DNA from: a virus
IMG/VR virus record: IMGVR_UViG_3300022559_000060
Span: 1-7,568 of that record
Length of the DNA: 7,568 nucleotides
Strand: one strand, 5' to 3'
The notes beneath the pieces were generated by a model, which saw nothing but the letters and a program-made list of their open reading frames with translations, made no database searches and was not told the origin of the DNA. The position numbers and the translations under genes were made by a program. Below are positions 1 through 7,568 of this stretch, piece by piece; position 1 is the first letter of the stretch; each line of letters begins with the position of its first letter.

Positions 1-77
1 GGCGAGGTACGAGCCGGCGCGCAAACCGTCTTTCTGTCCTCTTTTCTGCATTTATACTTAGTGCGCTTCGCATAATG
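1..77. repeat. Left copy of the 77-bp terminal direct repeat (identical to 7492-7568)
   Basis: Base-by-base comparison: ggcgaggtacgagccggcgcgcaaaccgtctttctgtcctcttttctgcatttatacttagtgcgcttcgcataatg occurs at both ends. Confidence 0.95.
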
Positions 78-95
78 GCCGGCCTTATGTTGAGC
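65..95 (+). other. dif-like XerC/XerD recombination site (candidate attP)
   Basis: GCTTCGCATAA-TGGCCGGCC-TTATGTTGAGC compared with E. coli dif GGTGCGCATAA-TGTATA-TTATGTTAAAT. The left arm matches 9/11 and the right arm 8/11 (TTATGTT intact). The central region is 9 nt and GC-palindromic instead of 6 nt. Confidence 0.5.
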
Positions 96-147
96 GGCGT
101 CCGGAAAATCCGCGCAGCTCCGGGCGTCGGTTAACATAGGGCCGATT

Positions 148-384
148 ATGCGACGGCCTATCTCTCTCGAAATTCCCGCTCACCTGGTCGAATCCGCCCA
201 GCTCTACGCCCCGACCCGCCATGAACTCGACGCCGTTTGCTACGTCCTGGAGCGATACCCAGACGTGGTTGCGGATATGCGTCGGTTGACTGCCAGAGTC
301 GCCCAGCTCGATGCCGAATCAGCCCAGCTCGACCACCTGGTTACCGAACTCCAGGCAATCGCCCGGCGTGTCCTCGATCTTTAG
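148..384 (+). CDS. Putative ribbon-helix-helix DNA-binding protein with C-terminal coiled coil (78 aa)
   Basis: High GC3 ORF with a weak SD AGGG at 138-141. The N-terminus ISLEIPAHLVESAQLYA...LDAVCYVLERY fits a beta-strand/helix/turn/helix RHH pattern. The C-terminus RRLTARVAQLDAESAQLDHLVTELQAIARRVL is heptad-like. It aligns without gaps to the 516-782 product. Confidence 0.6.
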   Translation: MRRPISLEIPAHLVESAQLYAPTRHELDAVCYVLERYPDVVADMRRLTARVAQLDAESAQLDHLVTELQAIARRVLDL

Positions 385-386
385 CA

Positions 387-512
387 GGTACCGTTTCGGT
401 CTTCCTGGTTGTCATCGAGCACCAAAAAAGGTACCAAAACAGTTGACGCCTTCTGCCATTATGGTACTGTTTTCGCTACCTGGTCGCCGACCAGGACAAT
501 AGAAAAGGTACC
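387..512 (+). promoter_or_regulatory. Operator/promoter region: four GGTAC(C) motifs flanked by A/T tracts, bracketing a sigma70-like promoter
   Basis: GGTACC occurs at 387-392, 430-435 and 507-512, and GGTACT at 463-468. The -35 TTGACG is at 443-448 and a candidate -10 TACTGT at 465-470 (16-nt spacer). The inverted repeat AAAACAGT (436-443) / ACTGTTTT (466-473) brackets the promoter (its left arm overlaps the first base of the -35, its right arm the -10). The palindrome CCTGGT-cgccg-ACCAGG lies at 479-495. Confidence 0.45.
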
Positions 513-515
513 GAT

Positions 516-782
516 ATGCTGGTAAAAATTACTGACTTCCCCGACTCCCTGGTCGAAGACCTCAAGCACGCTACCGGCCAAGCGACCGGCTCTAAGGCTG
601 TTTTCTTCGCCGCCTCTAAGTTCGTTGAGATGGCCGAGGAGAACACACGTCTTTCCTTTGAGTGCGCCCAACTTCAAGAGCGAATCGATCATCTTCACGA
701 TGTTCTAGCCAGTGCTCGACACGCTTGCGGCCACTTTCTTGAAACCATCAATCAGCGCGATCTGTTCGAGAAGGATGCCTAA
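516..782 (+). CDS. Putative ribbon-helix-helix DNA-binding protein with coiled coil (88 aa), paralog of the 148-384 product
   Basis: SD AAAGG at 504-508. The N-terminus VKITDFPDSLVEDLKHATGQATGSKAVFFAASKFVE is a classic RHH pattern. The central ENTRLSFECAQLQERIDHLHDVL is heptad-like. The stop lies 3 nt before the next ATG. Confidence 0.6.
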   Translation: MLVKITDFPDSLVEDLKHATGQATGSKAVFFAASKFVEMAEENTRLSFECAQLQERIDHLHDVLASARHACGHFLETINQRDLFEKDA

Positions 783-785
783 GCC

Positions 786-1013
786 ATGAACCCAGAAGAA
801 CTTTATTCGTTTTCCGATAAGGCCCTAAATCTTGACCGAATCCGCGCCTTCTGCGACCAGATCGAGGACTGCCGAAACCCTGATGATTTCTATCTTGCAT
901 CCCAAAAGGCCCACTGGCTTCTGTGTGCTTTTTGGCACGGTTGCAGGCACCAATTCGACCATGCCCGCGAAGTCATTAGCGCCGCCTTAGACAAGGCCGA
1001 AAGCCGATTCTGA
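786..1013 (+). CDS. Hypothetical 75-aa protein, Cys/His-containing, co-transcribed with the RHH gene
   Basis: The ORF is tightly coupled to 516-782 (TAA at 780-782, ATG at 786). Its codons are more AT-rich than those of the structural genes. I recognise no motif; it contains C..C...C..WHGCRH..H. Confidence 0.55.
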   Translation: MNPEELYSFSDKALNLDRIRAFCDQIEDCRNPDDFYLASQKAHWLLCAFWHGCRHQFDHAREVISAALDKAESRF

Positions 1014-1140
1014 TCCCTACTTCTCACTGTTCGCCCGCTTTCCGCAACGGTAGGTGGGCGCCAGGTTTATTCGGTGTTTGGTCCCGGAGGCAATTTCCGT
1101 AGATCTTTGATAGGCGCACCGCCCGCCCAGCTGGCCCACA

Positions 1141-1166
1141 AAGAAAAACCCCGGCTTGCGCCGGGG
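1141..1166 (-). terminator. Rho-independent terminator for the - strand 65-aa gene (also sits between convergent genes)
   Basis: Stem CCCCGGC (1149-1155) / GCCGGGG (1160-1166) with loop TTGC. On the - strand the hairpin is followed by TTTTTCTT (complement of 1141-1148), and it lies 5 nt past the stop of 1172-1369. Confidence 0.8.
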
Positions 1167-1171
1167 CTGTT

Positions 1172-1369
1172 TCAGAACGGTGTTCCCTTGATCCTTTTGA
1201 TTATCCGGTTGCCTAACCACCGCGCTATTTCTTGGTAAACCTCGAAATCTGCGTCTGACTGGCTGCTTCCGTAATCGTTTCTTTCGTCGATTCCGTCTAG
1301 TAACTCTATCGCCTCTTTCACGTTGTCCATTTCTTCTTCGGTCAGAGTGATTTTGTATTCGCTTTTCAT
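1172..1369 (-). CDS. Hypothetical acidic 65-aa protein (moron-like stand-alone cassette)
   Basis: Strong SD GGAGG 8 nt upstream of the ATG on the - strand, and its own intrinsic terminator. GC is about 45% by hand count, against about 65% in a sampled stretch of the Zot-like gene. The protein has an acidic core (EEEMDNVKEAIELLDGIDERNDYGSSQSDADFE) and a basic tail (NRIIKRIKGTPF). Confidence 0.7.
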   Translation of the reverse strand: MKSEYKITLTEEEMDNVKEAIELLDGIDERNDYGSSQSDADFEVYQEIARWLGNRIIKRIKGTPF

Positions 1370-1397
1370 CGTGGCCGCCTCCTGAGCGATCGTCTAG

Positions 1398-1675
1398 CTG
1401 ACGTCCGTCAGGGGGAGCCCCAGCGGGGTTCTGTCAACGACCGCTTGCGGCCCGGCCTGATCGTTGACGGGTTCACGCTGGGGCTCACACTGGCAGTCAG
1501 TTAGATGATGCGTCTATCAGGCTGTCTTCGATGTGTTAGGCGCTGGAGCGGGTGAGGGGCGCAGCCCCTCAAGGGTCCCCGAAGGGGCTGCTTTTGCTTC
1601 TTGCCGGCGAAGCCGGGTCCACCATCTCTAATGGTGGACTTTTGTGTCATGGTGACACTTTTGGTTGATTTTTGA
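1398..1675 (+). other. Hairpin-dense non-coding block: candidate packaging signal and/or complementary-strand origin
   Basis: Stem-loops are at 1398-1411 (CTGAC/GTCAG), 1554-1570, 1604-1616, 1618-1638 (8 bp) and 1644-1658. A 72-nt nested hairpin spans 1415-1486, with an 11-bp outer stem GAGCCCCAGCG/CGCTGGGGCTC and an 8-bp inner stem GTCAACGA/TCGTTGAC. Alternative pairing is possible at 1562-1590. Several are followed by T tracts on the + strand. Confidence 0.5.
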
Positions 1676-1915
1676 TCAGCTTTTCGCGCGCTTCTTTGGT
1701 TTTTTCGTGGAGCCAAATTCTTCTTTGTATTCAAGGACATCCTTGGTTGTCACCTTGTCCAGATACCGCCATAGAGCAGCGTTCACTAGGTCGGCTTCTG
1801 CGATGTCTTCCCGGGTCTCGATGATCATGTTGATCCGGCGCTCTTCTAGCACCTCTACGAATTCTTCTTTGACCCTGTAGACCTTGCTCACTGGCTCACT
1901 TCTCGTCTGTTGCAT
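1676..1915 (-). CDS. Putative ribbon-helix-helix transcriptional regulator (79 aa), divergent from rep; candidate phage repressor
   Basis: KVYRVKEEFVEVLEERRINMI...EADLVNAALWRYL fits the RHH strand/helix/helix pattern, with a Lys-rich tail KKPKKRAKS. It is divergent from the Rep gene across an operator-like palindrome. Confidence 0.6.
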   Translation of the reverse strand: MQQTRSEPVSKVYRVKEEFVEVLEERRINMIIETREDIAEADLVNAALWRYLDKVTTKDVLEYKEEFGSTKKPKKRAKS

Positions 1916-1940
1916 GGCGACCCCGTAATTTTGTCACCTG

Positions 1941-2000
1941 TTGCACTGTTACACGTTACAGCGTATAAATCGCATAAATCGTAACTTGTAACGGCGTTAC
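1941..2000 (+). promoter_or_regulatory. rep promoter with overlapping GTTAC operator palindrome; possible + strand origin
   Basis: The -35 TTGCAC is at 1941-1946 and the -10 TATAAA at 1964-1969 (17-nt spacer). GTTACacGTTAC (1948-1959) is inverted against GTAACttGTAAC (1981-1992), matching 11/12. Tandem ATAAATCG copies lie at 1965-1972 and 1974-1981. An extra GTTAC lies at 1996-2000. Confidence 0.5.
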
Positions 2001-2002
2001 AG

Positions 2003-3229
2003 ATGCTCGACAAACTGCACCTTTTCGTCCCTTTCCGCCTCGAGCACATCAAGTTGCTTGGCGCTGACGGTCGTAGCTACCCGGTGCACTTCGTCGACCT
2101 CGAAGCCCTGGAAGTTCCCCTGCAAGGCCAGATCAGCAGGGCAGACGATGGCAGCCTCCATGCCGAACGCCTGCGCCACGCCTGGGAATCGCTTTCTACC
2201 GGTTTCACACCGCTGGCGTTCAAGGTCTTTCACGAGTCGCTCGGTAAGCGACTGATGCCCGGCATCGAGATTAAGGCTAGTCCGGCCAAGCTCCTTCAGG
2301 GGCACAACGTTTTCGGCCCTGTCTGCATCGAGAAGGGTGCTTTGGTCATGCTCAAGTGGATTGCCGGCACCTATCCGAAGCTCGCGCAGATGCTCGATAT
2401 CTCGGCCACCCAGGTCTACGCCCTGGACTGCACCTATAGCGCCCGCATGCCCAACGAGCGCACCGCTCAGCAGGTGATTGATGCATTGCGCGGCACCTCC
2501 AACGGCCACACCAAGAGCCGTGGCGACAACTACCAGACAACCGCGTATTGGGGCGCTAAGGAATCGCGCCTCAAGCGCCTCAAGGCGTATTTGAAACACC
2601 CCGAGTTTCTGCGTCAGCTCGAAGACGCCAAGCGGGCAGGGCGGGGCGATTTGTCTGCTGCTCGCACCATGAAGGTACTGAGCAACCCATTACTCCAGGA
2701 GCACGCTAAGGACTTGCTCCGTTTCGAGGCCACGGTCATGCACCGATGGCTTGAGCGTCGCGGCGTCTCGTCGCGGCTTGTTGATCTGATCGCGCACCAG
2801 CAGAAGCTCCTAGGGGAGGGGCGTTGTTTTATTCAGGAGTGCTGGCAGGCGGTTACAGCCCCGATCTTTGCGGCCTTTGAAGGTATGACGATGAAACAGA
2901 TTGATGATGAAAAAGTGCTGGCCGCACTTATTGAGAAACACACCAAGTACGACCGCCACGGCAAGCCCAGTGACAGCTATGCCAAAAACCTCTTCCGGAC
3001 CTATCTCAGCCTGAAAGATTACGGCTGGGAACACACGAAAGATCTCGGCCCGCGCACGTTCTACCGCCACGTTAACGACATCTGCGAAGCTGGTCTCTCC
3101 AAAGCCGCCTTGCAGAAGCTCCACGAAGTGGACCGGGGTAATGTCGTGCCGCTGCTGCGCTTCGTGCAGGTCGACTTCTCGGCCCAGCGCCCTGACTGGT
3201 ACGTCGAGCCAACTGTTGAGGCTGCCTGA
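2003..3229 (+). CDS. Rolling-circle replication initiation protein, filamentous-phage gene II/X-type family
   Basis: 408-aa ORF with high GC3. The N-terminus MLDKLHLFVPF and the motif KASPAKLLQGHNVFGP resemble gene II-type phage replication initiators as I recall them. It is the first gene of the long + strand operon. There is no clear SD before the ATG at 2003. Confidence 0.75.
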   Translation: MLDKLHLFVPFRLEHIKLLGADGRSYPVHFVDLEALEVPLQGQISRADDGSLHAERLRHAWESLSTGFTPLAFKVFHESLGKRLMPGIEIKASPAKLLQGHNVFGPVCIEKGALVMLKWIAGTYPKLAQMLDISATQVYALDCTYSARMPNERTAQQVIDALRGTSNGHTKSRGDNYQTTAYWGAKESRLKRLKAYLKHPEFLRQLEDAKRAGRGDLSAARTMKVLSNPLLQEHAKDLLRFEATVMHRWLERRGVSSRLVDLIAHQQKLLGEGRCFIQECWQAVTAPIFAAFEGMTMKQIDDEKVLAALIEKHTKYDRHGKPSDSYAKNLFRTYLSLKDYGWEHTKDLGPRTFYRHVNDICEAGLSKAALQKLHEVDRGNVVPLLRFVQVDFSAQRPDWYVEPTVEAA

Positions 3230-3423
3230 TGATTCCTGAAATTCTTGATTTCGAGCAATGCGAGTGGTGCGCAGAGGTTACCGATTGCGTTCGCTGTGAG
3301 CTTTTGAACGGTCAATACGCGCTCCTTTGCGAGAGCTGCGAGGACCATCTCGACCAGCAGATTGAAGAATACGACGAATCCCAACCGGGCCAGCCGGCCC
3401 AACGTTCCCCCCGAGAGGTGTAA
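3229..3423 (+). CDS. Small Cys-rich (three CxxC pairs) protein with acidic tail, zinc-ribbon-like (64 aa)
   Basis: The start overlaps the rep stop (TGATG), with SD GAGG at 3218-3221. The Cys pairs are CEWC, CVRC and CESC, followed by the acidic tail DHLDQQIEEYDE. Confidence 0.65.
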   Translation: MIPEILDFEQCEWCAEVTDCVRCELLNGQYALLCESCEDHLDQQIEEYDESQPGQPAQRSPREV

Positions 3424-3426
3424 ACC

Positions 3427-3774
3427 ATGCTACTGCTTACCGGCCTGTGCCACGGCTACAAAGCCAATACCCGCCGTAATGGCTCCAACGAATTTACCGA
3501 CCATCTTCTGTTGCTTGAGGTGCAGGACACCAACCAGTACGGCATCCCTGAGACCAAAACGGTCGGCATCAAGCTGTCGAAAGCCGATGTAGAGGGCGGT
3601 TTGCAGCACCTCTATGACCAGCTAAAAGGCAAGGCTCTAACCGTGCCCGTTCGCGTCGGCCCTTGGGCGTCCAAGGCCGGCAACGCCGGTTACGACTTCT
3701 GGCTTTCTGGCGACCGCAAGCCCGTCCAGATGCAAATCAAGCCGCCTGCTTCTGCCGTCCAGGCCGCGAGCTAA
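3427..3774 (+). CDS. Putative ssDNA-binding protein (gene V analog), assigned by position only (115 aa)
   Basis: SD GAGAGGTG at 3413-3420 and high GC3. It occupies the gene V slot between Rep and the small coat/TM genes. I recognise no diagnostic motif. Confidence 0.45.
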   Translation: MLLLTGLCHGYKANTRRNGSNEFTDHLLLLEVQDTNQYGIPETKTVGIKLSKADVEGGLQHLYDQLKGKALTVPVRVGPWASKAGNAGYDFWLSGDRKPVQMQIKPPASAVQAAS

Positions 3775-3789
3775 GGGGAGGGCGCCGCC

Positions 3790-3984
3790 ATGCTGATCGT
3801 TGATCGCGTGCTGTGTGACTGCTGCGGGCAACCCATGGGCCAGCTCTACAACCAGTCCGCCCCCAGCCCGATCTGCTGCCCTACCTCAGCAGGCGGCCCC
3901 ACTTCGCCGTCTGCCCCGACTGCGAACCCTCCGAACAAACCGCCGACCTCGAGCAGGCCGGCGAATGAATTTCCTCGCCTGTGA
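3790..3984 (+). CDS. Small Cys-rich ORF (64 aa as drawn); its 3' half may actually be read in the -1 frame, ending at 3968
   Basis: Strong SD GGAGG at 3777-3781, 8 nt before the ATG. The N-terminus is VLCDCCGQP. After a C5 run (3860-3864) the -1 frame has better GC3, encodes CPDCE, and ends in a TGA that overlaps the next ATG (ATGA at 3965-3968). Confidence 0.55.
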   Translation: MLIVDRVLCDCCGQPMGQLYNQSAPSPICCPTSAGGPTSPSAPTANPPNKPPTSSRPANEFPRL

Positions 3985-4174
3985 CGGTGACTGGCTGCAA
4001 GGCGTGGACGGCTCGCCTGTCTGCTCCGGCCAACTAGTTTCCCTCACGGTCGAGGAAATGCAGGGCCTCTACGGCTCTGCACTGACCTGGGACCAAGTCT
4101 CCGAGCTGCAAGGCGAAGCGATTGTTCTGTTCGCCATCGTGTTCGGCTTCCTGGTCCTGAAAAAAGCCCTGTAA
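3965..4174 (+). CDS. Small protein with C-terminal transmembrane anchor (69 aa); candidate minor coat/assembly protein (g7/g9 slot)
   Basis: This uses an internal ATG of the 3800-4174 ORF; the Arg-rich TTG-initiated extension looks like off-frame sequence. The C-terminus AIVLFAIVFGFLVLKKAL is a TM segment plus basic end. The gene lies just upstream of the major coat gene. Confidence 0.6.
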   Translation: MNFLACDGDWLQGVDGSPVCSGQLVSLTVEEMQGLYGSALTWDQVSELQGEAIVLFAIVFGFLVLKKAL

Positions 4175-4190
4175 CAATGAGGTATCACCC

Positions 4191-4400
4191 ATGCAACTGA
4201 ACAAGCACTTCATCAAGAAAATCGGCCTCGGCGCTGCCGTTGCTCTCTCGGCTGTAGCCGGCTCCGTCTATGCGGCAGTCCCGGCCGAAGCCACCGCGGC
4301 GCTGGATACCGCGGGCACCGACGTCGGCACCATCGGCTGGGCCGTCTTCGCTGTGATCATCGCCGCGATGGCGTTCAAGTACATGCGCCGCGCCCTGTAA
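4191..4400 (+). CDS. Major coat protein precursor (g8p-like, 69 aa)
   Basis: SD GAGGT lies 7 nt upstream. The 28-aa signal peptide ends in SVYA. The 41-aa mature part has an acidic N-terminus (AVPAEATAALDTAGTD), a hydrophobic core (IGWAVFAVIIAAMAF) and a basic C-terminus (KYMRRAL). A strong terminator follows, as after gene VIII in Ff phages. Confidence 0.85.
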   Translation: MQLNKHFIKKIGLGAAVALSAVAGSVYAAVPAEATAALDTAGTDVGTIGWAVFAVIIAAMAFKYMRRAL

Positions 4401-4434
4401 CCGGGAGCCGCGCACTGCATGTGCCGAAGCAAAC

Positions 4435-4463
4435 AAACCCCGCTCCGGCGGGGTTTTCTCTTC
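4435..4463 (+). terminator. Rho-independent terminator after the major coat gene
   Basis: Stem CCCCGC (4438-4443) / GCGGGG (4448-4453) with loop TCCG. The stem is extendable by AA/TT and is followed by TTTTCTCTT. Confidence 0.85.
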
Positions 4464-4476
4464 CAGGGGAACGCCA

Positions 4477-4548
4477 ATGAGCTACGAACTGTACGTCCTG
4501 ATCCTTACCACCCTGGCGTTTTATCTCGTGTTTTTTGGGCGGGTGTGA
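4477..4548 (+). CDS. 23-aa hydrophobic micro-ORF (MSYELYVLILTTLAFYLVFFGRV), absent from the ORF track
   Basis: SD GGGGA lies 6 nt upstream of the ATG at 4477. The peptide has a single TM-like span. Its stop TGA (4546-4548) lies 1 nt before the ATG at 4550 of the g3p-like gene. Confidence 0.5.
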   Translation: MSYELYVLILTTLAFYLVFFGRV

Positions 4549-4549
4549 T

Positions 4550-5941
4550 ATGCGCAGACTTAGGCTGTATTTTTCGCTGTTGCTGCTGGTTGTTTTGGCA
4601 GGGGGGTATTCGGTGTCTACTTTTGCCGAAGACTATTACTGGACTACCAACTTTTCCGGCCAAATGCGGTTCTCTTCACCAGTTGAGGCCTGCACTTATT
4701 CAGGTCGCGCCTCCACACAAAATTGGTTTCCTGTTCGTAATACAGATATACAGTTCCGTTGCCATCGTACCTGTGCAAGTAACGAGGCATTTACTGGCTG
4801 CCCATCTAATTACGCCACCAATGTTCTCGTTTACCGGGGTGGCGATGGGTGCACCTCTCCCGCCGTGTACAACAATCAAACGGGCTTATGCGAAGCTCCT
4901 CAGCCCAGCCGCTGTGAATCCACCATCGGCCAGGTCGTCACGCACGAACACAAGTTGAAAGAAGCGGTTGGCCAGCCGCAGATCGAACCGCCTGGATCGG
5001 TCTGCGCCAATAGCTGCCAGTACGTCTTCGGCTTCACCGCGCCCAGCAACGTCTACGCCTACACCAGCGGTAATCCGCCTGGCGTGTTTGGCGTTTACAG
5101 CTATACCGGCAACGGCATCGAGTGCAACGAAGACACGCGCAAGGACCCGGGCAGTCCCGGTCAGCAGACTGATCCCGACGAAACCCCAACCCCTGATCCT
5201 GACAACAAATGCCCGGACGGCTACGTCTGGAACGGCACCTTCTGTAGCAAGGAACCGCCCCCGCCATGTGATCCCGAAGTCGAGGTTGGCGGTTGCGACG
5301 ACACCGGGAACCCCGATCCTGACAACCCTGGCGACGGTGACGGCGAAGGGGATGGTAACGGCGATGGAGACGGTGACGGTTCCGGCGAAGGAGATGGCAG
5401 TGGTGATGGCTCCGGTGATGGGTCTGGAGACGGCTCGGGCGAGGGCGAAGGCAGTGGTGACGGCGACGGATCGGGTGAAGACGATGGCGAAGCCGAATGC
5501 GACCCGGCCAAGGATCCAAACAAGTGCGGCAAGTCCAGCGTAGAAGGCGAAGCCTGTGACGCTGAGCTGAAGTGCACCGGCGATGCCGTGCAATGCGCGA
5601 TCCTCCGCCAGCAAAAGGCACTGCGCTGCCACGCCGAAGAACAGGCCGACTTTGAAAAGTACGAACCCGCCATTGAATCCGCGGTCCAGGGCGACGAGTT
5701 CCAGCTGGATGAAGGCTCCGGCGTCATCGACGTGCCTTCTTTCATCAACCAGGGCACCCGCTTTCTGCCGTCCGCCTGTCCTGCCGATGAGAGCTTCAGC
5801 CTGACCACGGCGGGCGGTGCCACTTTCCAGCTCAGCTACGAACCGCTTTGTCGCGCTGCCAGTGACCTGAGCGGCTTGTTTGTGGCCGTGGCTACCGTTC
5901 TTGCCGCCCTGTATGTAGGCGGCTCAGTAAGGGGTCAGTAA
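4550..5941 (+). CDS. Minor coat / adsorption protein (g3p-like, 463 aa from ATG 4550)
   Basis: It has a signal peptide MRRLRLYFSLLLLVVLAGGYSVSTFA, Cys-rich N-terminal domains, a Gly/Asp/Glu/Ser linker and a C-terminal TM anchor LFVAVATVLAALYVGG. It sits in the position of gene III. The track start at 4535 is a TTG; the ATG at 4550 gives a cleaner signal peptide. Confidence 0.75.
   Translation: MRRLRLYFSLLLLVVLAGGYSVSTFAEDYYWTTNFSGQMRFSSPVEACTYSGRASTQNWFPVRNTDIQFRCHRTCASNEAFTGCPSNYATNVLVYRGGDGCTSPAVYNNQTGLCEAPQPSRCESTIGQVVTHEHKLKEAVGQPQIEPPGSVCANSCQYVFGFTAPSNVYAYTSGNPPGVFGVYSYTGNGIECNEDTRKDPGSPGQQTDPDETPTPDPDNKCPDGYVWNGTFCSKEPPPPCDPEVEVGGCDDTGNPDPDNPGDGDGEGDGNGDGDGDGSGEGDGSGDGSGDGSGDGSGEGEGSGDGDGSGEDDGEAECDPAKDPNKCGKSSVEGEACDAELKCTGDAVQCAILRQQKALRCHAEEQADFEKYEPAIESAVQGDEFQLDEGSGVIDVPSFINQGTRFLPSACPADESFSLTTAGGATFQLSYEPLCRAASDLSGLFVAVATVLAALYVGGSVRGQ
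5330..5491 (+). repeat. Low-complexity (G-D/E/S/N)n linker-coding repeat within the g3p-like gene
   Basis: It encodes GDGDGEGDGNGDGDGDGSGEGDGSGDGSGDGSGDGSGEGEGSGDGDGSGEDDGE using varied synonymous codons, so the repeat is at protein level rather than an exact DNA tandem. Confidence 0.85.
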
Positions 5942-6324
5942 TGCAGTTTCTATTCATCGTGCAGATGCTCGTCATCATCCTCGGCCCGCTGGTAAAGATG
6001 GTGCTGAAAATGATCGGGTTCGGCTTCGTCTCTTATGTCGGCTTCAACCTCATCATCGGCCAGGCCCAGGACTACCTGTTCGGGCTGATTGGCGATTTAG
6101 GTCCGGTGATCCAGGGGATTCTCGGGCTTGCCAAGTTCGATGTGGTGGTGAACCTTTACTTCGCCGCTATCTCGACGCGCTTCGTCCTCGCCGGGATCGA
6201 CAAGGCCACCGACCGCAAACGCAATCAGGTCTGGCGCGCGCGGGCGGCACCTCCATCGAAGCCTAAGGAGGCGCCGTTATGCTCGTTATCCGTACCGGCA
6301 AGCCCGGCCATGGCAAGACCCTGA
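5941..6324 (+). CDS. g6p-like small membrane protein (127 aa)
   Basis: The start overlaps the upstream stop (TAATG). The N-terminal two thirds are hydrophobic (FLFIVQMLVIILGPLV, IGFGFVSYVGFNLIIG, VVVNLYFAAI). It lies between the g3p-like and Zot-like genes, as gene VI does in Ff. Its 3' end overlaps the next gene by 46 nt. Confidence 0.6.
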   Translation: MQFLFIVQMLVIILGPLVKMVLKMIGFGFVSYVGFNLIIGQAQDYLFGLIGDLGPVIQGILGLAKFDVVVNLYFAAISTRFVLAGIDKATDRKRNQVWRARAAPPSKPKEAPLCSLSVPASPAMARP

Positions 6325-7472
6325 ACACCATCCGCGAAGTGGACCAGAAGGCCCATGCCGAAGGCCGGGTGGTCTACTTCCACAACATCAACGGCCTCAA
6401 GCCCGATCTGCTGCAAGCGCAGTGGTTCGAGTTCGAAGATCCCGAGAAGTGGTTCGAGCTGCCAAACGATTCGATCATCGTCGTGGACGAAGCTCAGGGC
6501 TGGTTCGGCGCACGCGATCCACGAGCGCGCCCGCCCGAGCACATCACGCGTTTCGAGACCATGCGCCACCAAGGCCACGAGGTGCACCTCGTCACCCAGG
6601 ACCCGCGTTATCTCGATGTTCACCTGCGCCGGCTGTGCAACTCCCATATTCACTACTGGCGCGTGTTCAAGTCTGCCCAGCTGCTGCGCTTCGAGTCGGA
6701 AGTGGTGGTGGAAAAGGTCGAGCTGAAAACCAGCTTCAAGGACGCCGACAAGAAGTCGCTGCGCCTGGATAAGCGTTACTTCGGCGCCTACACCAGCAGC
6801 AACGCCAAGCACCACTTCCAGACCAAGGTGCCGACCAAGTTCATCCTGGCGTTGTGCGTGATCCTTGGTGCCGGCATTCTCGTTTATCGCGCCTATGAGC
6901 GCTACGCCGCCGAGAAAGTGCAGGCCGCAACAGCCACCAGCGCGCCGGCCGGGAGCATGGTCGATCAGGTACGGGATACGGTCGGGTCGTTTATCCGGCC
7001 AAGTGCTTCCGAAGACGGCCAATCGGCACCGCTCACCGTCGAGCAGTACCTGGGCAAGCGCGTGCCCAGGGTACAAGACCTGCCGGCATCCGCGCCGGTG
7101 TATGACGGCCTGACCGGCCCGCAAGCCTTCCCGAAACCGATCTGCATCGCCACCACCGACCGCGATCTGATCGCCCGCAACTACAAGCGCATGCAGGTCG
7201 GCGATAGCGATGAAGGGCTGACGGGGTGCCGATGCAACACCCAGCAGGGCACCCGCCTGGATGTGTCGTTTCGCTTCTGTATGTCGGTCGTGCAGAACGG
7301 CTACTTCGACGACACCAAGCCCGACCGCGGTTCGCCTCAGGACCAGCGAAATCAGCACGCCCAAAACGCCCCGCCACCGACGATGCCTCCCGCTCACGCT
7401 GCAGCTGTGCAACCGGCGGGAGGCCCGAACCTGACCGTCGTGCCGTACCAGAAGGGGCAATTCCTGTGGTGA
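6279..7472 (+). CDS. Zot / g1p-family phage assembly ATPase (397 aa)
   Basis: SD AAGGAGG at 6265-6271. The Walker A motif GKPGHGKT is at aa 7-14, with a Walker B-like IIVVDEAQ and a central TM segment FILALCVILGAGILVY. The domain order matches gene I/Zot proteins. Confidence 0.85.
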   Translation: MLVIRTGKPGHGKTLNTIREVDQKAHAEGRVVYFHNINGLKPDLLQAQWFEFEDPEKWFELPNDSIIVVDEAQGWFGARDPRARPPEHITRFETMRHQGHEVHLVTQDPRYLDVHLRRLCNSHIHYWRVFKSAQLLRFESEVVVEKVELKTSFKDADKKSLRLDKRYFGAYTSSNAKHHFQTKVPTKFILALCVILGAGILVYRAYERYAAEKVQAATATSAPAGSMVDQVRDTVGSFIRPSASEDGQSAPLTVEQYLGKRVPRVQDLPASAPVYDGLTGPQAFPKPICIATTDRDLIARNYKRMQVGDSDEGLTGCRCNTQQGTRLDVSFRFCMSVVQNGYFDDTKPDRGSPQDQRNQHAQNAPPPTMPPAHAAAVQPAGGPNLTVVPYQKGQFLW

Positions 7473-7478
7473 TGAGCG

Positions 7479-7540
7479 GGTTTGCACGCCGGGCGAGGTA
7501 CGAGCCGGCGCGCAAACCGTCTTTCTGTCCTCTTTTCTGC
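7479..7540 (+). terminator. Rho-independent terminator at the end of the structural operon
   Basis: Stem GGTTTGCaCGCCGG (7479-7492) / CCGGCGcGCAAACC (7505-7518) with one A/C mismatch and a 12-nt loop, followed by the T-rich GTCTTTCTGTCCTCTTTTCTG. A partial copy lies at 1-48. Confidence 0.7.
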
Positions 7541-7568
7541 ATTTATACTTAGTGCGCTTCGCATAATG
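7492..7568. repeat. Right copy of the 77-bp terminal direct repeat
   Basis: Identical to 1-77. The repeat starts inside the stem of the terminator hairpin after the Zot-like gene, which argues for circular-contig overlap rather than a biological att or LTR. Confidence 0.95.

Follow-up and report, generated by a model that had tools for sequence, protein, structure and literature searches.

This work concerns a 7,568-nucleotide (nt) stretch of viral DNA (IMG/VR record IMGVR_UViG_3300022559_000060, positions 1 to 7,568; referred to here, at its full length, as the window) and, within it, three small plus-strand genes at positions 148-1013, which we call A, B, and C. Gene B is preceded by four short hexamers that hold fixed positions around a putative promoter, and across related loci the hexamer sequence changes in step with residues of the predicted N-terminal strand of the B protein. 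From this comparative signature, it is likely that B binds the hexamers and represses its own promoter. We lean, with moderate confidence, toward a fuller explanation in which B also has a ribbon-helix-helix fold and its oligomers bridge hexamers lying 43-44 base pairs (bp) apart. B is a new lineage within a well-known type of regulator, and its operator signature across loci is unusually clear; C is a new small protein family. The overall design is a new example of familiar regulation and not a new kind of system.

Putative operator array and promoter of gene B

The 7.5-kb genome has just three GGTACC sites, all of them at positions 387-512; together with one GGTACT, they occupy the 131-nt spacer between A and B (Table 1). 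This four-site layout, with sites 44, 33, and 44 nt apart (at about -130, -86, -53, and -9), is shared by five related loci (L004, L023, L025, L027, and L029), and a variant layout of 44, 22, and 44 nt (-129, -85, -63, and -19) is found in NEU2023, 17897, 36-2, and others. The hexamer layout persists upstream of B homologs down to ∼32% protein identity. Locus comparison also places a TTGAC(N) element after site 2 and, 16 nt further on, a -10 element that overlaps site 3. An earlier note on this DNA had described the genes as lying under an operator-rich promoter; the description holds for B, with its four fixed hexamers co-varying with strand residues, and fails for A, upstream of which lies the hairpin of the phage attachment site (attP).

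The sequence of the hexamers follows the N terminus of the B protein. Where hexamers are present, B proteins that begin ML(V/I)K, with Lys4, always have GGTACC, and B proteins with Thr4 and Arg6 (MLLTIRD, KTITIRD, and TLTLRD) have GCTAGC, GATAGC, or GCTATC at the same positions, a co-variation that covers these two hexamer classes only (subfamily probes P0045 and P0161 gave no viral loci). Hexamer type and spacing are separable: the 22-nt layout (-63/-19) holds GGTACC in 17897 and NEU2023 and the GCTAGC type in 36-2. Ribbon-helix-helix proteins of the Arc/MetJ kind read bases with alternate residues of the N-terminal strand. Comparison among loci thus supports short, sequence-specific palindromic operators tied to strand residues for B, and not for A.

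Two further features of the B loci deserve mention. An inverted repeat, CCTGGT...ACCAGG, separates the two hexamers of each pair, at an equivalent position in all B loci, and is kept with either GGTACC or GCTAGC hexamers, so it is not read by the variable strand residues. At L035 (positions 1237-1941; IMGVR_UViG_2912953232_000005), seven GGTAC(C/T) sites stand upstream of the B homolog, directly after the second dif-like site of attP (attP2), and three more stand downstream, an array far larger than autoregulation alone would require.

Table 1. Features of the window bearing on genes A, B, and C
Feature	Position	Strand	Basis or remark
attP1, dif-like XerC/XerD site gcTTCGCATAATGGCCGGCCTTATGTTGAGC	66-95	+	Recurs upstream of A in most related loci
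attP hairpin (attP1 and inverted attP2, with GC-rich apical stem)	68-155	+	Single-stranded DNA folding
attP2, inverted second dif-like site (reverse complement CGTCGCATAATCGGCCCTATGTTAAC)	127-152	-	Read from sequence
Gene A, 78 amino acids (aa)	148-384	+	Open reading frame (ORF); phrog_13909, E=1e-28, no function annotated
O1, GGTACC, -129 from B start	387-392		Position kept in L004, L023, L025, L027, and L029
O2, GGTACC, -86, directly upstream of -35	430-435		Genome scan and locus comparison
Putative -35, TTGACG	443-448	+	TTGAC(N) at same distance from O2/O3 in five diverged loci
Putative extended -10, TGgTACTGT	462-470	+	Relatives carry TGGTACCAT at same place
O3, GGTACT, -53, within -10	463-468		Genome scan and locus comparison
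Inner inverted repeat CCTGGTCGCCGACCAGG, between O3 and O4	479-495		Conserved whichever hexamer type
O4, GGTACC, -9, B ribosome-binding region	507-512		Genome scan and locus comparison
Gene B, 88 aa, ribbon-helix-helix-like with long helix	516-782	+	phrog_8031, E=6e-20
Gene C, 75 aa, acidic	786-1013	+	ORF; translationally coupled to B
Backbone resumption, conserved non-coding	1017-1100		Directly follows A stop in A-only phages
Hairpin between A and T runs, candidate bidirectional terminator	1144-1171		Inverted repeat; terminator call on minus strand only
Repressor homolog, 79 aa	1676-1915	-	64% and 41% identity to annotated repressors of phages 36-2 and 97-1 (BLASTP); phrog_5219

Predicted fold of the B protein

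The AlphaFold2 monomer model of B (mean predicted local distance difference test [pLDDT] score, 91) contains two helices, at residues 10-20 and 25-87, the second of which is 63 residues long. Read along the sequence, the N terminus consists of a putative strand (MLVKIT), helix A, a TGxxT(A/G)SK loop, and then the long helix of ∼63 residues. The family consensus, MLxKxxDxxDxLxxxLKxxTGxxTASKAxxxAAxxY, has the spacing of strand, helix A, loop, and helix B; in it, TGxxTASKA covers the loop, 4-5 residues long in the model, and the beginning of helix B. The codons of B differ from those of L004 by seven synonymous changes and one nonsynonymous change. When N-terminal domains were compared with Pfam, FitA-like_RHH was the commonest sub-threshold match (6 of 70), with single matches that included RHH_1 and VapB_antitoxin. 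The B homolog of prophage 36-2 is labeled in GenBank as a "7NUV-like DNA-binding protein," 7NUV being the tetramerization domain of the ribbon-helix-helix protein Aux2 of pLS20 (PMC8829557).

Several points weigh against this reading of B, on both the protein and the DNA side. Among full-length family members, the best Pfam ribbon-helix-helix match was FitA-like_RHH (2 of 148, E=1.4e-4), below the curated cut-off, and for N-terminal domains the best matches were all sub-threshold (FitA-like_RHH, E=0.008; RHH_1, 0.17; VapB11, 0.24). An hhalign comparison with one bona fide RHH_1 protein gave a probability of 0.9%, and Foldseek searches with the B model returned nothing significant (E>=3.8 against the PDB and >=0.46 against BFVD). 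The AlphaFold2 monomers of A and B show no beta strand, which is expected of an obligate dimer and hence uninformative, and B is acidic overall (isoelectric point [pI] of 5.2). With respect to the DNA, the co-variation of hexamer and strand may amount to just one or two evolutionary switches, and one Lys4-type lineage (L046-L048) has no hexamer array. The -10 element of the window fits the consensus at three of six positions, and a consensus promoter scan of positions 1-2100 called no promoter, missing that of B with its weak -10. The inner CCTGG...CCAGG repeat is conserved between the hexamers and is unexplained by the model. Finally, B is often the sole gene of the module, and a repressor acting only on itself is an incomplete reason for its retention.

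The ribbon-helix-helix fold of A and B is, then, not statistically established by sequence or fold match. The earlier note had assigned such an N terminus to both proteins: the extended N terminus, helix, and loop of the models and the spacing of the consensus are compatible with that assignment, and the matches to known families are sub-threshold, with a null result from Foldseek. Profile searches of the PDB with A, B, the N-terminal domain, and C returned coiled-coil noise, tryptophan synthase noise, and a marginal match to ZapA. That match raises the alternative that A and B are ZapA-like coiled-coil proteins directed at FtsZ and cell division instead of DNA. The B profile matches Escherichia coli ZapA (4p1m) with E=0.0024 over 72 residues comprising a helix, a loop, and a long helix, and ZapA forms dumbbell-shaped tetramers through its long helix. 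However, the 4p1m match is marginal and lies mainly in the coiled coil, a second structure (9isj) gave E=0.44, the Pfam ZapA family was not recurrent among the 148 members, and the operator arrays with their strand co-variation suggest DNA binding. We regard a ZapA-like role as extremely unlikely.

The B family also extends to another phage context. Pseudomonas phage vB_Pae_U10 (L021, PP003922.1) encodes a B homolog of the GCTAGC type at positions 2501-2794, with two GCTAGC sites upstream. The record is annotated with a DNA primase and a GpN-type capsid gene, a context that is not inovirus-like, and the B family is thus not confined to filamentous phages.

Gene A and its relationship to gene B

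The plus-strand ORFs that the earlier note had delimited for A, B, and C were recovered at 148-384, 516-782, and 786-1013, as was its gapless alignment of A with B at a constant offset of one residue. The note had counted about 13 identities at this offset (-1); we count exactly 13 (P, LVE, AV, RL, AQL, L, and L). On its own this pairwise signal is marginal, with a shuffle p=0.046 for the best ungapped offset and a BLASTP E=0.002 for a single comparison, and profiles built from close homologs only gave an hhalign probability of 38% (E=3.4e-4). A merged A+B profile was searched against 1.84 billion representative proteins and recovered an A/B superfamily of 157 representatives, each standing for a cluster at 50% identity; for A itself, 22 homolog clusters were found. 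Profiles of 23 A-type and 125 B-type sequences then aligned in the same register over 73 columns with a probability of 97.5% and E=6.5e-12, with the caveat that both sets had been drawn with the merged profile. Each half of the protein matches alone (N-terminal halves, 91% and 1e-6; C-terminal halves, 90% and 1.8e-6, by hhalign), and the B profile directly matches distant members of the A family.

The monomer models share one topology as well, namely, an extended N terminus, a helix of 10-11 residues, a short loop, and one very long helix. In A (AlphaFold2 monomer, pLDDT of 92), helix 11-20 comes after the extended N terminus; a conserved loop, AQLYAP(T/S)R, then leads into a coiled-coil helix at 26-77. 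The heptad-like helix that had been proposed for both proteins is consistent with these long predicted helices and with the hydrophobic residues at a and d heptad positions (82% in A and 64% in B). Because diverse profiles match, each half matches alone, and the predicted topology is the same, we take A and B to be true distant paralogs, as the earlier note had suggested.

What holds for the operators of B does not carry over to A. The N-terminal segment of A is very short and contains Pro, its loop is AP(T/S)R, and no operator-like array was found around A in phages that carry A only, where the repeat search yielded just the dif-arm motif ATTATG. A is always adjacent to attP in related loci, and no co-variation between A and attP sequence was seen.

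Gene C and the B-C pair

Gene C begins 3 nt after the stop codon of B in the window, and the gap between the two genes ranges from -4 to +5 nt across six loci. The earlier note had described C as a Cys/His-containing orphan translationally adjacent to B. The adjacency and the composition (four Cys and four His) stand; the orphan status does not, since homologs with 89, 63, 52, and 32% identity follow directly after B homologs in four further phage lineages. C and its homologs (75-80 aa) are always preceded by a B homolog, share the core W-x-L-C-A-F-W-x-G (invariant W44, L46, C47, A48, F49, W50, and G52), have a pI of 4.2-5.4, and are not hydrophobic. When the window is compared with L027, third codon positions of C carry most of the changed nucleotides (48 versus 21 and 12), so C is a real conserved gene under purifying selection. 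A non-coding C, considered on account of a 2:6 ratio of synonymous to nonsynonymous changes relative to L004, was dismissed after comparison with more distant homologs.

A word-indexed protein search had returned no relative of C beyond C itself, a result overturned by the ORFs found beside B homologs. The homologs with 89% and 63% identity are encoded on contigs of the very collection that gave the null result; orphan status derived from a word-indexed search therefore needs checking via gene neighborhoods. Scans of viral and genome collections with a C profile yielded nothing further. As the earlier note had it, the protein fits no curated family: searches with C and its homologs yielded no match in PHROGs or the PDB, nothing meaningful in PADLOC, and, from Pfam, just a piece of DUF6756 below threshold.

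The arrangement of B and C invites comparison with type II toxin-antitoxin systems, in which case B would neutralize a toxin C through its long C-terminal helix, autoregulate, and stabilize the prophage or episome by addiction. The gene order (an antitoxin-like gene first and a small partner second), the coupling across six loci, and the palindromic operators overlapping the promoter are those of a compact toxin-antitoxin operon. Weak matches of B go to the antitoxins FitA (2bsq), MazE, and VapB and to 1y9b, a putative transcription factor of Vibrio cholerae that we take to be antitoxin-like. A precedent exists in phage Pf4, whose PfiT/PfiA toxin-antitoxin system is reported to modulate phage production (PMC13048266). 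The architecture that the earlier note had recognized is partly present, in the coupled partner and the operator-rich promoter. However, searches of Pfam, PHROGs, PADLOC, and the PDB linked C to no toxin family, and C is acidic, unlike most RNase-type toxins. Pairing is not obligate: most B-family genes are partnerless with the same array (36-2, 17897, NEU2023, L006, L022, L035, L044, and L049), and the C-terminal motif of B is conserved with or without C. An 89%-identical C is moreover paired with a merely 61%-identical B, which indicates recombination between the two genes. We consider an addiction pair decidedly unlikely.

A related proposal is a secondary immunity region like that of Arc, Mnt, and Ant, with A and B as paralogous repressors and C as an antirepressor, superinfection-exclusion, or host-interference effector kept at low levels. 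In the immI region of P22, Mnt has an oligomerizing helix, and each of the two paralogous ribbon-helix-helix-like proteins here is predicted to have one too. A tightly autoregulated promoter would drive a small acidic protein, for which RstC, a 74-aa antirepressor of the RS1 satellite of CTXphi, offers a precedent, and the B-C cassette is moron-like in its low GC content and inserted position. Against this, C is homologous to no antirepressor or exclusion protein and is found with at least three unrelated repressor types (in the window, L004, and L025), which argues against a repressor-specific antirepressor; A, in addition, lacks a detectable operator array. Sequence comparison also indicates that A and B are not the primary immunity repressor of the phage, because a separate 79-aa repressor homolog is encoded divergently from the replication gene (Table 1). 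The Arc/Mnt-like regulatory role put forward by the earlier note is a fair analogy and no more, and we judge an immunity region of this kind to be unlikely.

Insertion and mosaicism of the B-C cassette

GC content is 0.52 in genes B and C and ranges from 0.59 to 0.63 in A, the replication gene, and Zot. In relatives that carry A only, the sequence cactgtccaacccgctttt...ggtttattcggtgg... lies directly 3' of the A stop codon, and in the window it reappears only past the stop codon of C. Since the backbone that flanks A resumes after C, B-C is a two-gene, lower-GC insertion behind A. Nucleotide divergence from the nearest relative (IMG/VR UViG 3300006192_000003) is 17.7% for A and ∼3.5% for B and C; from L023, it is 6% for C and 36% for B. 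This unequal divergence marks the region as mosaic, with B and C separately exchangeable.

In phage blackswan219-6 (L003, MZ474488.1, positions 5515-6108), the gene coupled to the B homolog, across 3 nt, is a 94-aa ORF that is not related to C, which suggests that the position behind B accepts different payloads. The module is absent from phages 97-1, 42-1, and 5a-DAzarov, in keeping with its placement outside the inovirus core by the earlier note. On its 3' side, the hairpin at 1144-1171 is a candidate for closing both the A-B-C unit and a convergent ORF, its use on the plus strand being suggested by the sequence after the stem. That ORF, of 65 aa and acidic (1172-1369, minus strand), terminates at the shared hairpin, has no counterpart in any locus fetched, and may be another moron.

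attP hairpin and integration at dif

As read from its sequence, the attP of the window is of the CTXphi type, with two inverted dif-like sites forming a hairpin and no phage integrase, so that integration presumably depends on XerCD. Folded as single-stranded DNA, the hairpin has an energy of -31 kcal/mol (z=-4.77), and none of 200 shuffles was as good. The distance from attP1 to the A start is 79 nt in most related loci and 76 nt in one. The ATG of A (position 148) falls within the XerC-arm sequence of attP2, where TTATGCGA is the reverse complement of TCGCATAA, and this overlap explains both the fixed spacing and the conserved N-terminal Met-Arg of A. A promoter was considered as the cause of the spacing and set aside in favor of the overlap. 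The right arm of the hairpin contains the start codon and ribosome-binding region of A, which would also be sequestered in any mRNA spanning both arms.

Related prophages document integration at dif. Repeats of TTCGCATAATGT flank prophage 36-2, and in a Pseudomonas sp. chromosome an element lies between a hybrid dif-like site and the true dif, CGCATAATGTATATTATG. Besides an A homolog, this ∼2-kb element (L018 9931-11931; GCA_044543505.1, JBITWE010000004.1) contains only the conserved non-coding block and two ORFs, one of 124 aa with a ribbon-helix-helix-like C terminus and one of 119 aa. It has no replication or structural genes and resembles either a satellite or a dif-integrated element in decay. 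In Ectopseudomonas mendocina (CP176620.1; L034 8886-15452), a dif-like junction holds tandem prophage copies spaced ∼6.2 kb apart; the A homolog in each is 86% identical to A of the window. A tandem array is a requirement of the CTXphi-like lifestyle for virion production. The E. mendocina tandem prophages suggest a host range within the P. mendocina group.

Proximity to attP raises the question of whether A and B are architectural proteins more than gene regulators, forming a nucleoprotein complex that modulates XerCD recombination or acts in replicative-form maintenance or in packaging. Accessory sequences and proteins modulate XerCD recombination at cer and psi. One member of the family nearly always abuts attP2, with the ATG of A inside it, and the B array begins ∼10-20 nt from attP2 in 36-2, 17897, NEU2023, L044, L049, and L052. 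The 7+3 hexamers flanking B in L035 and the retention of A in the ∼2-kb dif-integrated element devoid of replication and structural genes point the same way. Other dif-integrating inoviruses have small accessory DNA-binding proteins, such as XafT, with its DUF3653 motifs LTG, WAGFxF, and TPE (bioRxiv 10.1101/2024.03.19.585677), and PSB15 of Xanthomonas phages, which is reported to act in packaging (PMC6744903). However, A, B, C, and superfamily members are not homologous to XafT or PSB15, nor did any of them match DUF3653, and the dif-integrating relatives 97-1 and 42-1 lack the family. In the window, the B array lies 235 nt from attP2 with gene A between, and the sequences of A and attP do not co-vary in the loci compared. 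An architectural role appears quite unlikely. A bolder version would make the A/B family (at least 157 clusters, no curated annotation) a new class of attP-proximal architectural proteins acting on hexamer arrays to control XerCD integration, loss, or replicative-form maintenance, with the translation start of A embedded in the recombination site and C an effector released on disassembly; we hold this to be very unlikely.

Genome and phage backbone

The last 77 nt of the 7568-nt window (7492-7568) repeat the first 77 (1-77), giving a complete, circularly permuted genome of ∼7491 nt. The G2P-type replication protein, from whose gene the repressor homolog diverges, is encoded at 2003-3229 (Pfam Phage_CRI, E=2.6e-45), and a single-stranded-DNA-binding protein of the G5P kind at 3427-3774. 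Position and size mark probable genes for coat, adsorption, and minor-coat proteins, and a 397-aa ORF (6279-7472) was called Zot/gI from gene order and 28.5% identity to the corresponding E. mendocina prophage ORF. No integrase was seen among the ORFs of the window or their family matches. By gene content, the window is a small integrase-less inovirus, filamentous and of the Pseudomonas type, that carries the inovirus core genes. The closest named phages are the small P. aeruginosa prophages 97-1 and 42-1, with 75% nt identity over the replication gene only; such small integrase-less filamentous Pseudomonas prophages, these two included, were described recently (PMC10675462).

Some features of the backbone lie apart from genes A to C. 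A large hairpin with 32-nt arms (1409-1492) stands beside a non-coding block (1560-1670) that is 83-95% identical to blackswan219-1 and NEU2023 and recurs in most relatives, the 2-kb L018 element included; the pair is a candidate packaging signal or replication origin. A 64-aa ORF (3229-3423, plus strand) overlaps the stop codon of the replication gene and has three CxxC pairs (zinc-ribbon-like) and an acidic tail, with no family match and no homolog within the fetched loci. An Rfam search of the window returned nothing.

Proposed model

In the model that we favor, region 148-1013 would serve the phage as an accessory regulatory module, located at its attP end; the phage, an inovirus without an integrase, would itself use host XerCD to enter dif. 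The module appears two-layered, with A fixed at attP and the B-C cassette inserted behind it. Dimers of B would read the palindromic GGTACC through strand residues, K4 being the chief candidate, and would fill the four hexamers that bracket and overlap a putative sigma-70 promoter of B itself: O2 at the -35, O3 in the -10, and O4 at the ribosome-binding site. Occupancy would repress transcription of B and of the coupled downstream C. Oligomerization through the long helix probably couples hexamer pairs 43-44 bp apart, an idea that amounts to arithmetic, as 63 helical residues span ∼95 angstroms and 44 bp span ∼150 angstroms. The payload under this control would be C, which is conserved, acidic, and soluble, with a length of 75-80 aa; our guess is that it modulates phage or host, for instance by countering a regulator or by acting in superinfection or host interference, and is not a classical toxin.

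The accessory genes of small integrase-less Pseudomonas filamentous phages are unannotated, and this module lies at, and partly inside, a CTXphi-type attP. The model offers a concrete proposal for phrog_13909 and phrog_8031, PHROG families without an assigned function, and supplies for B an operator (GGTACC or GCTAGC), a likely recognition pair (K4/T6 versus T4/R6), and a promoter. If the specificity of B can be reprogrammed as the co-variation suggests, B and its hexamers would make a compact orthogonal repressor/operator pair. Should A or B affect Xer recombination or phage production, the module would bear on prophage persistence in clinical and environmental pseudomonads.

Comparison with known systems

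The nearest likeness of B is to repressors such as P22 Mnt (with Arc, in immI), TraM, and pLS20 Aux2 (7NUV), which combine an N-terminal strand, two helices, and an extended oligomerizing helix and act on short repeated or palindromic sites overlapping their own promoters. Arc and Mnt are also two paralogs side by side, as are A and B, and the 36-2 homolog carries the 7NUV-like annotation. By contrast, neither the B profile nor the 36-2 homolog matched 7NUV, TraM, or Aux2, and no significant sequence or fold match to Mnt or Arc was found. Helix B of the B model runs unbroken into the long helix with no linker, and the B locus, with no antirepressor homolog, relaxase, or oriT context, sits by an inovirus attP hairpin.

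Type II operons with ribbon-helix-helix antitoxins (FitAB, ParDE, VapBC, and PfiAT of Pf4) resemble the module in having a DNA-binding gene followed by a coupled small gene, autoregulation at palindromic operators, and, in the prophage case, a location at a prophage end. The module differs in that C is acidic and falls outside the toxin families, B is mostly partnerless, and C recombines independently. The ribbon-helix-helix proteins ParR (on parC), ParG, and omega, which bind plasmid centromeres and autoregulate, share with B the arrays of short repeats around and inside their own promoters (up to 10 sites in L035), and by this analogy cooperative higher-order binding is plausible for B. The B locus, however, has no partition NTPase gene or sequence match to these systems, and its repeats are 6-bp palindromes spaced 22-44 bp, not tandem iterons.

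Finally, A, B, and C lack homology to XafT (TLCphi), PSB15 (phiLf-UK), and RstB/RstC (CTXphi/RS1), and have no DUF3653 match. Their setting is nevertheless the same, that of small non-structural proteins encoded near the attP of integrase-less, dif-integrating phages, and the double inverted dif-like attP of the window is like that of CTXphi itself.

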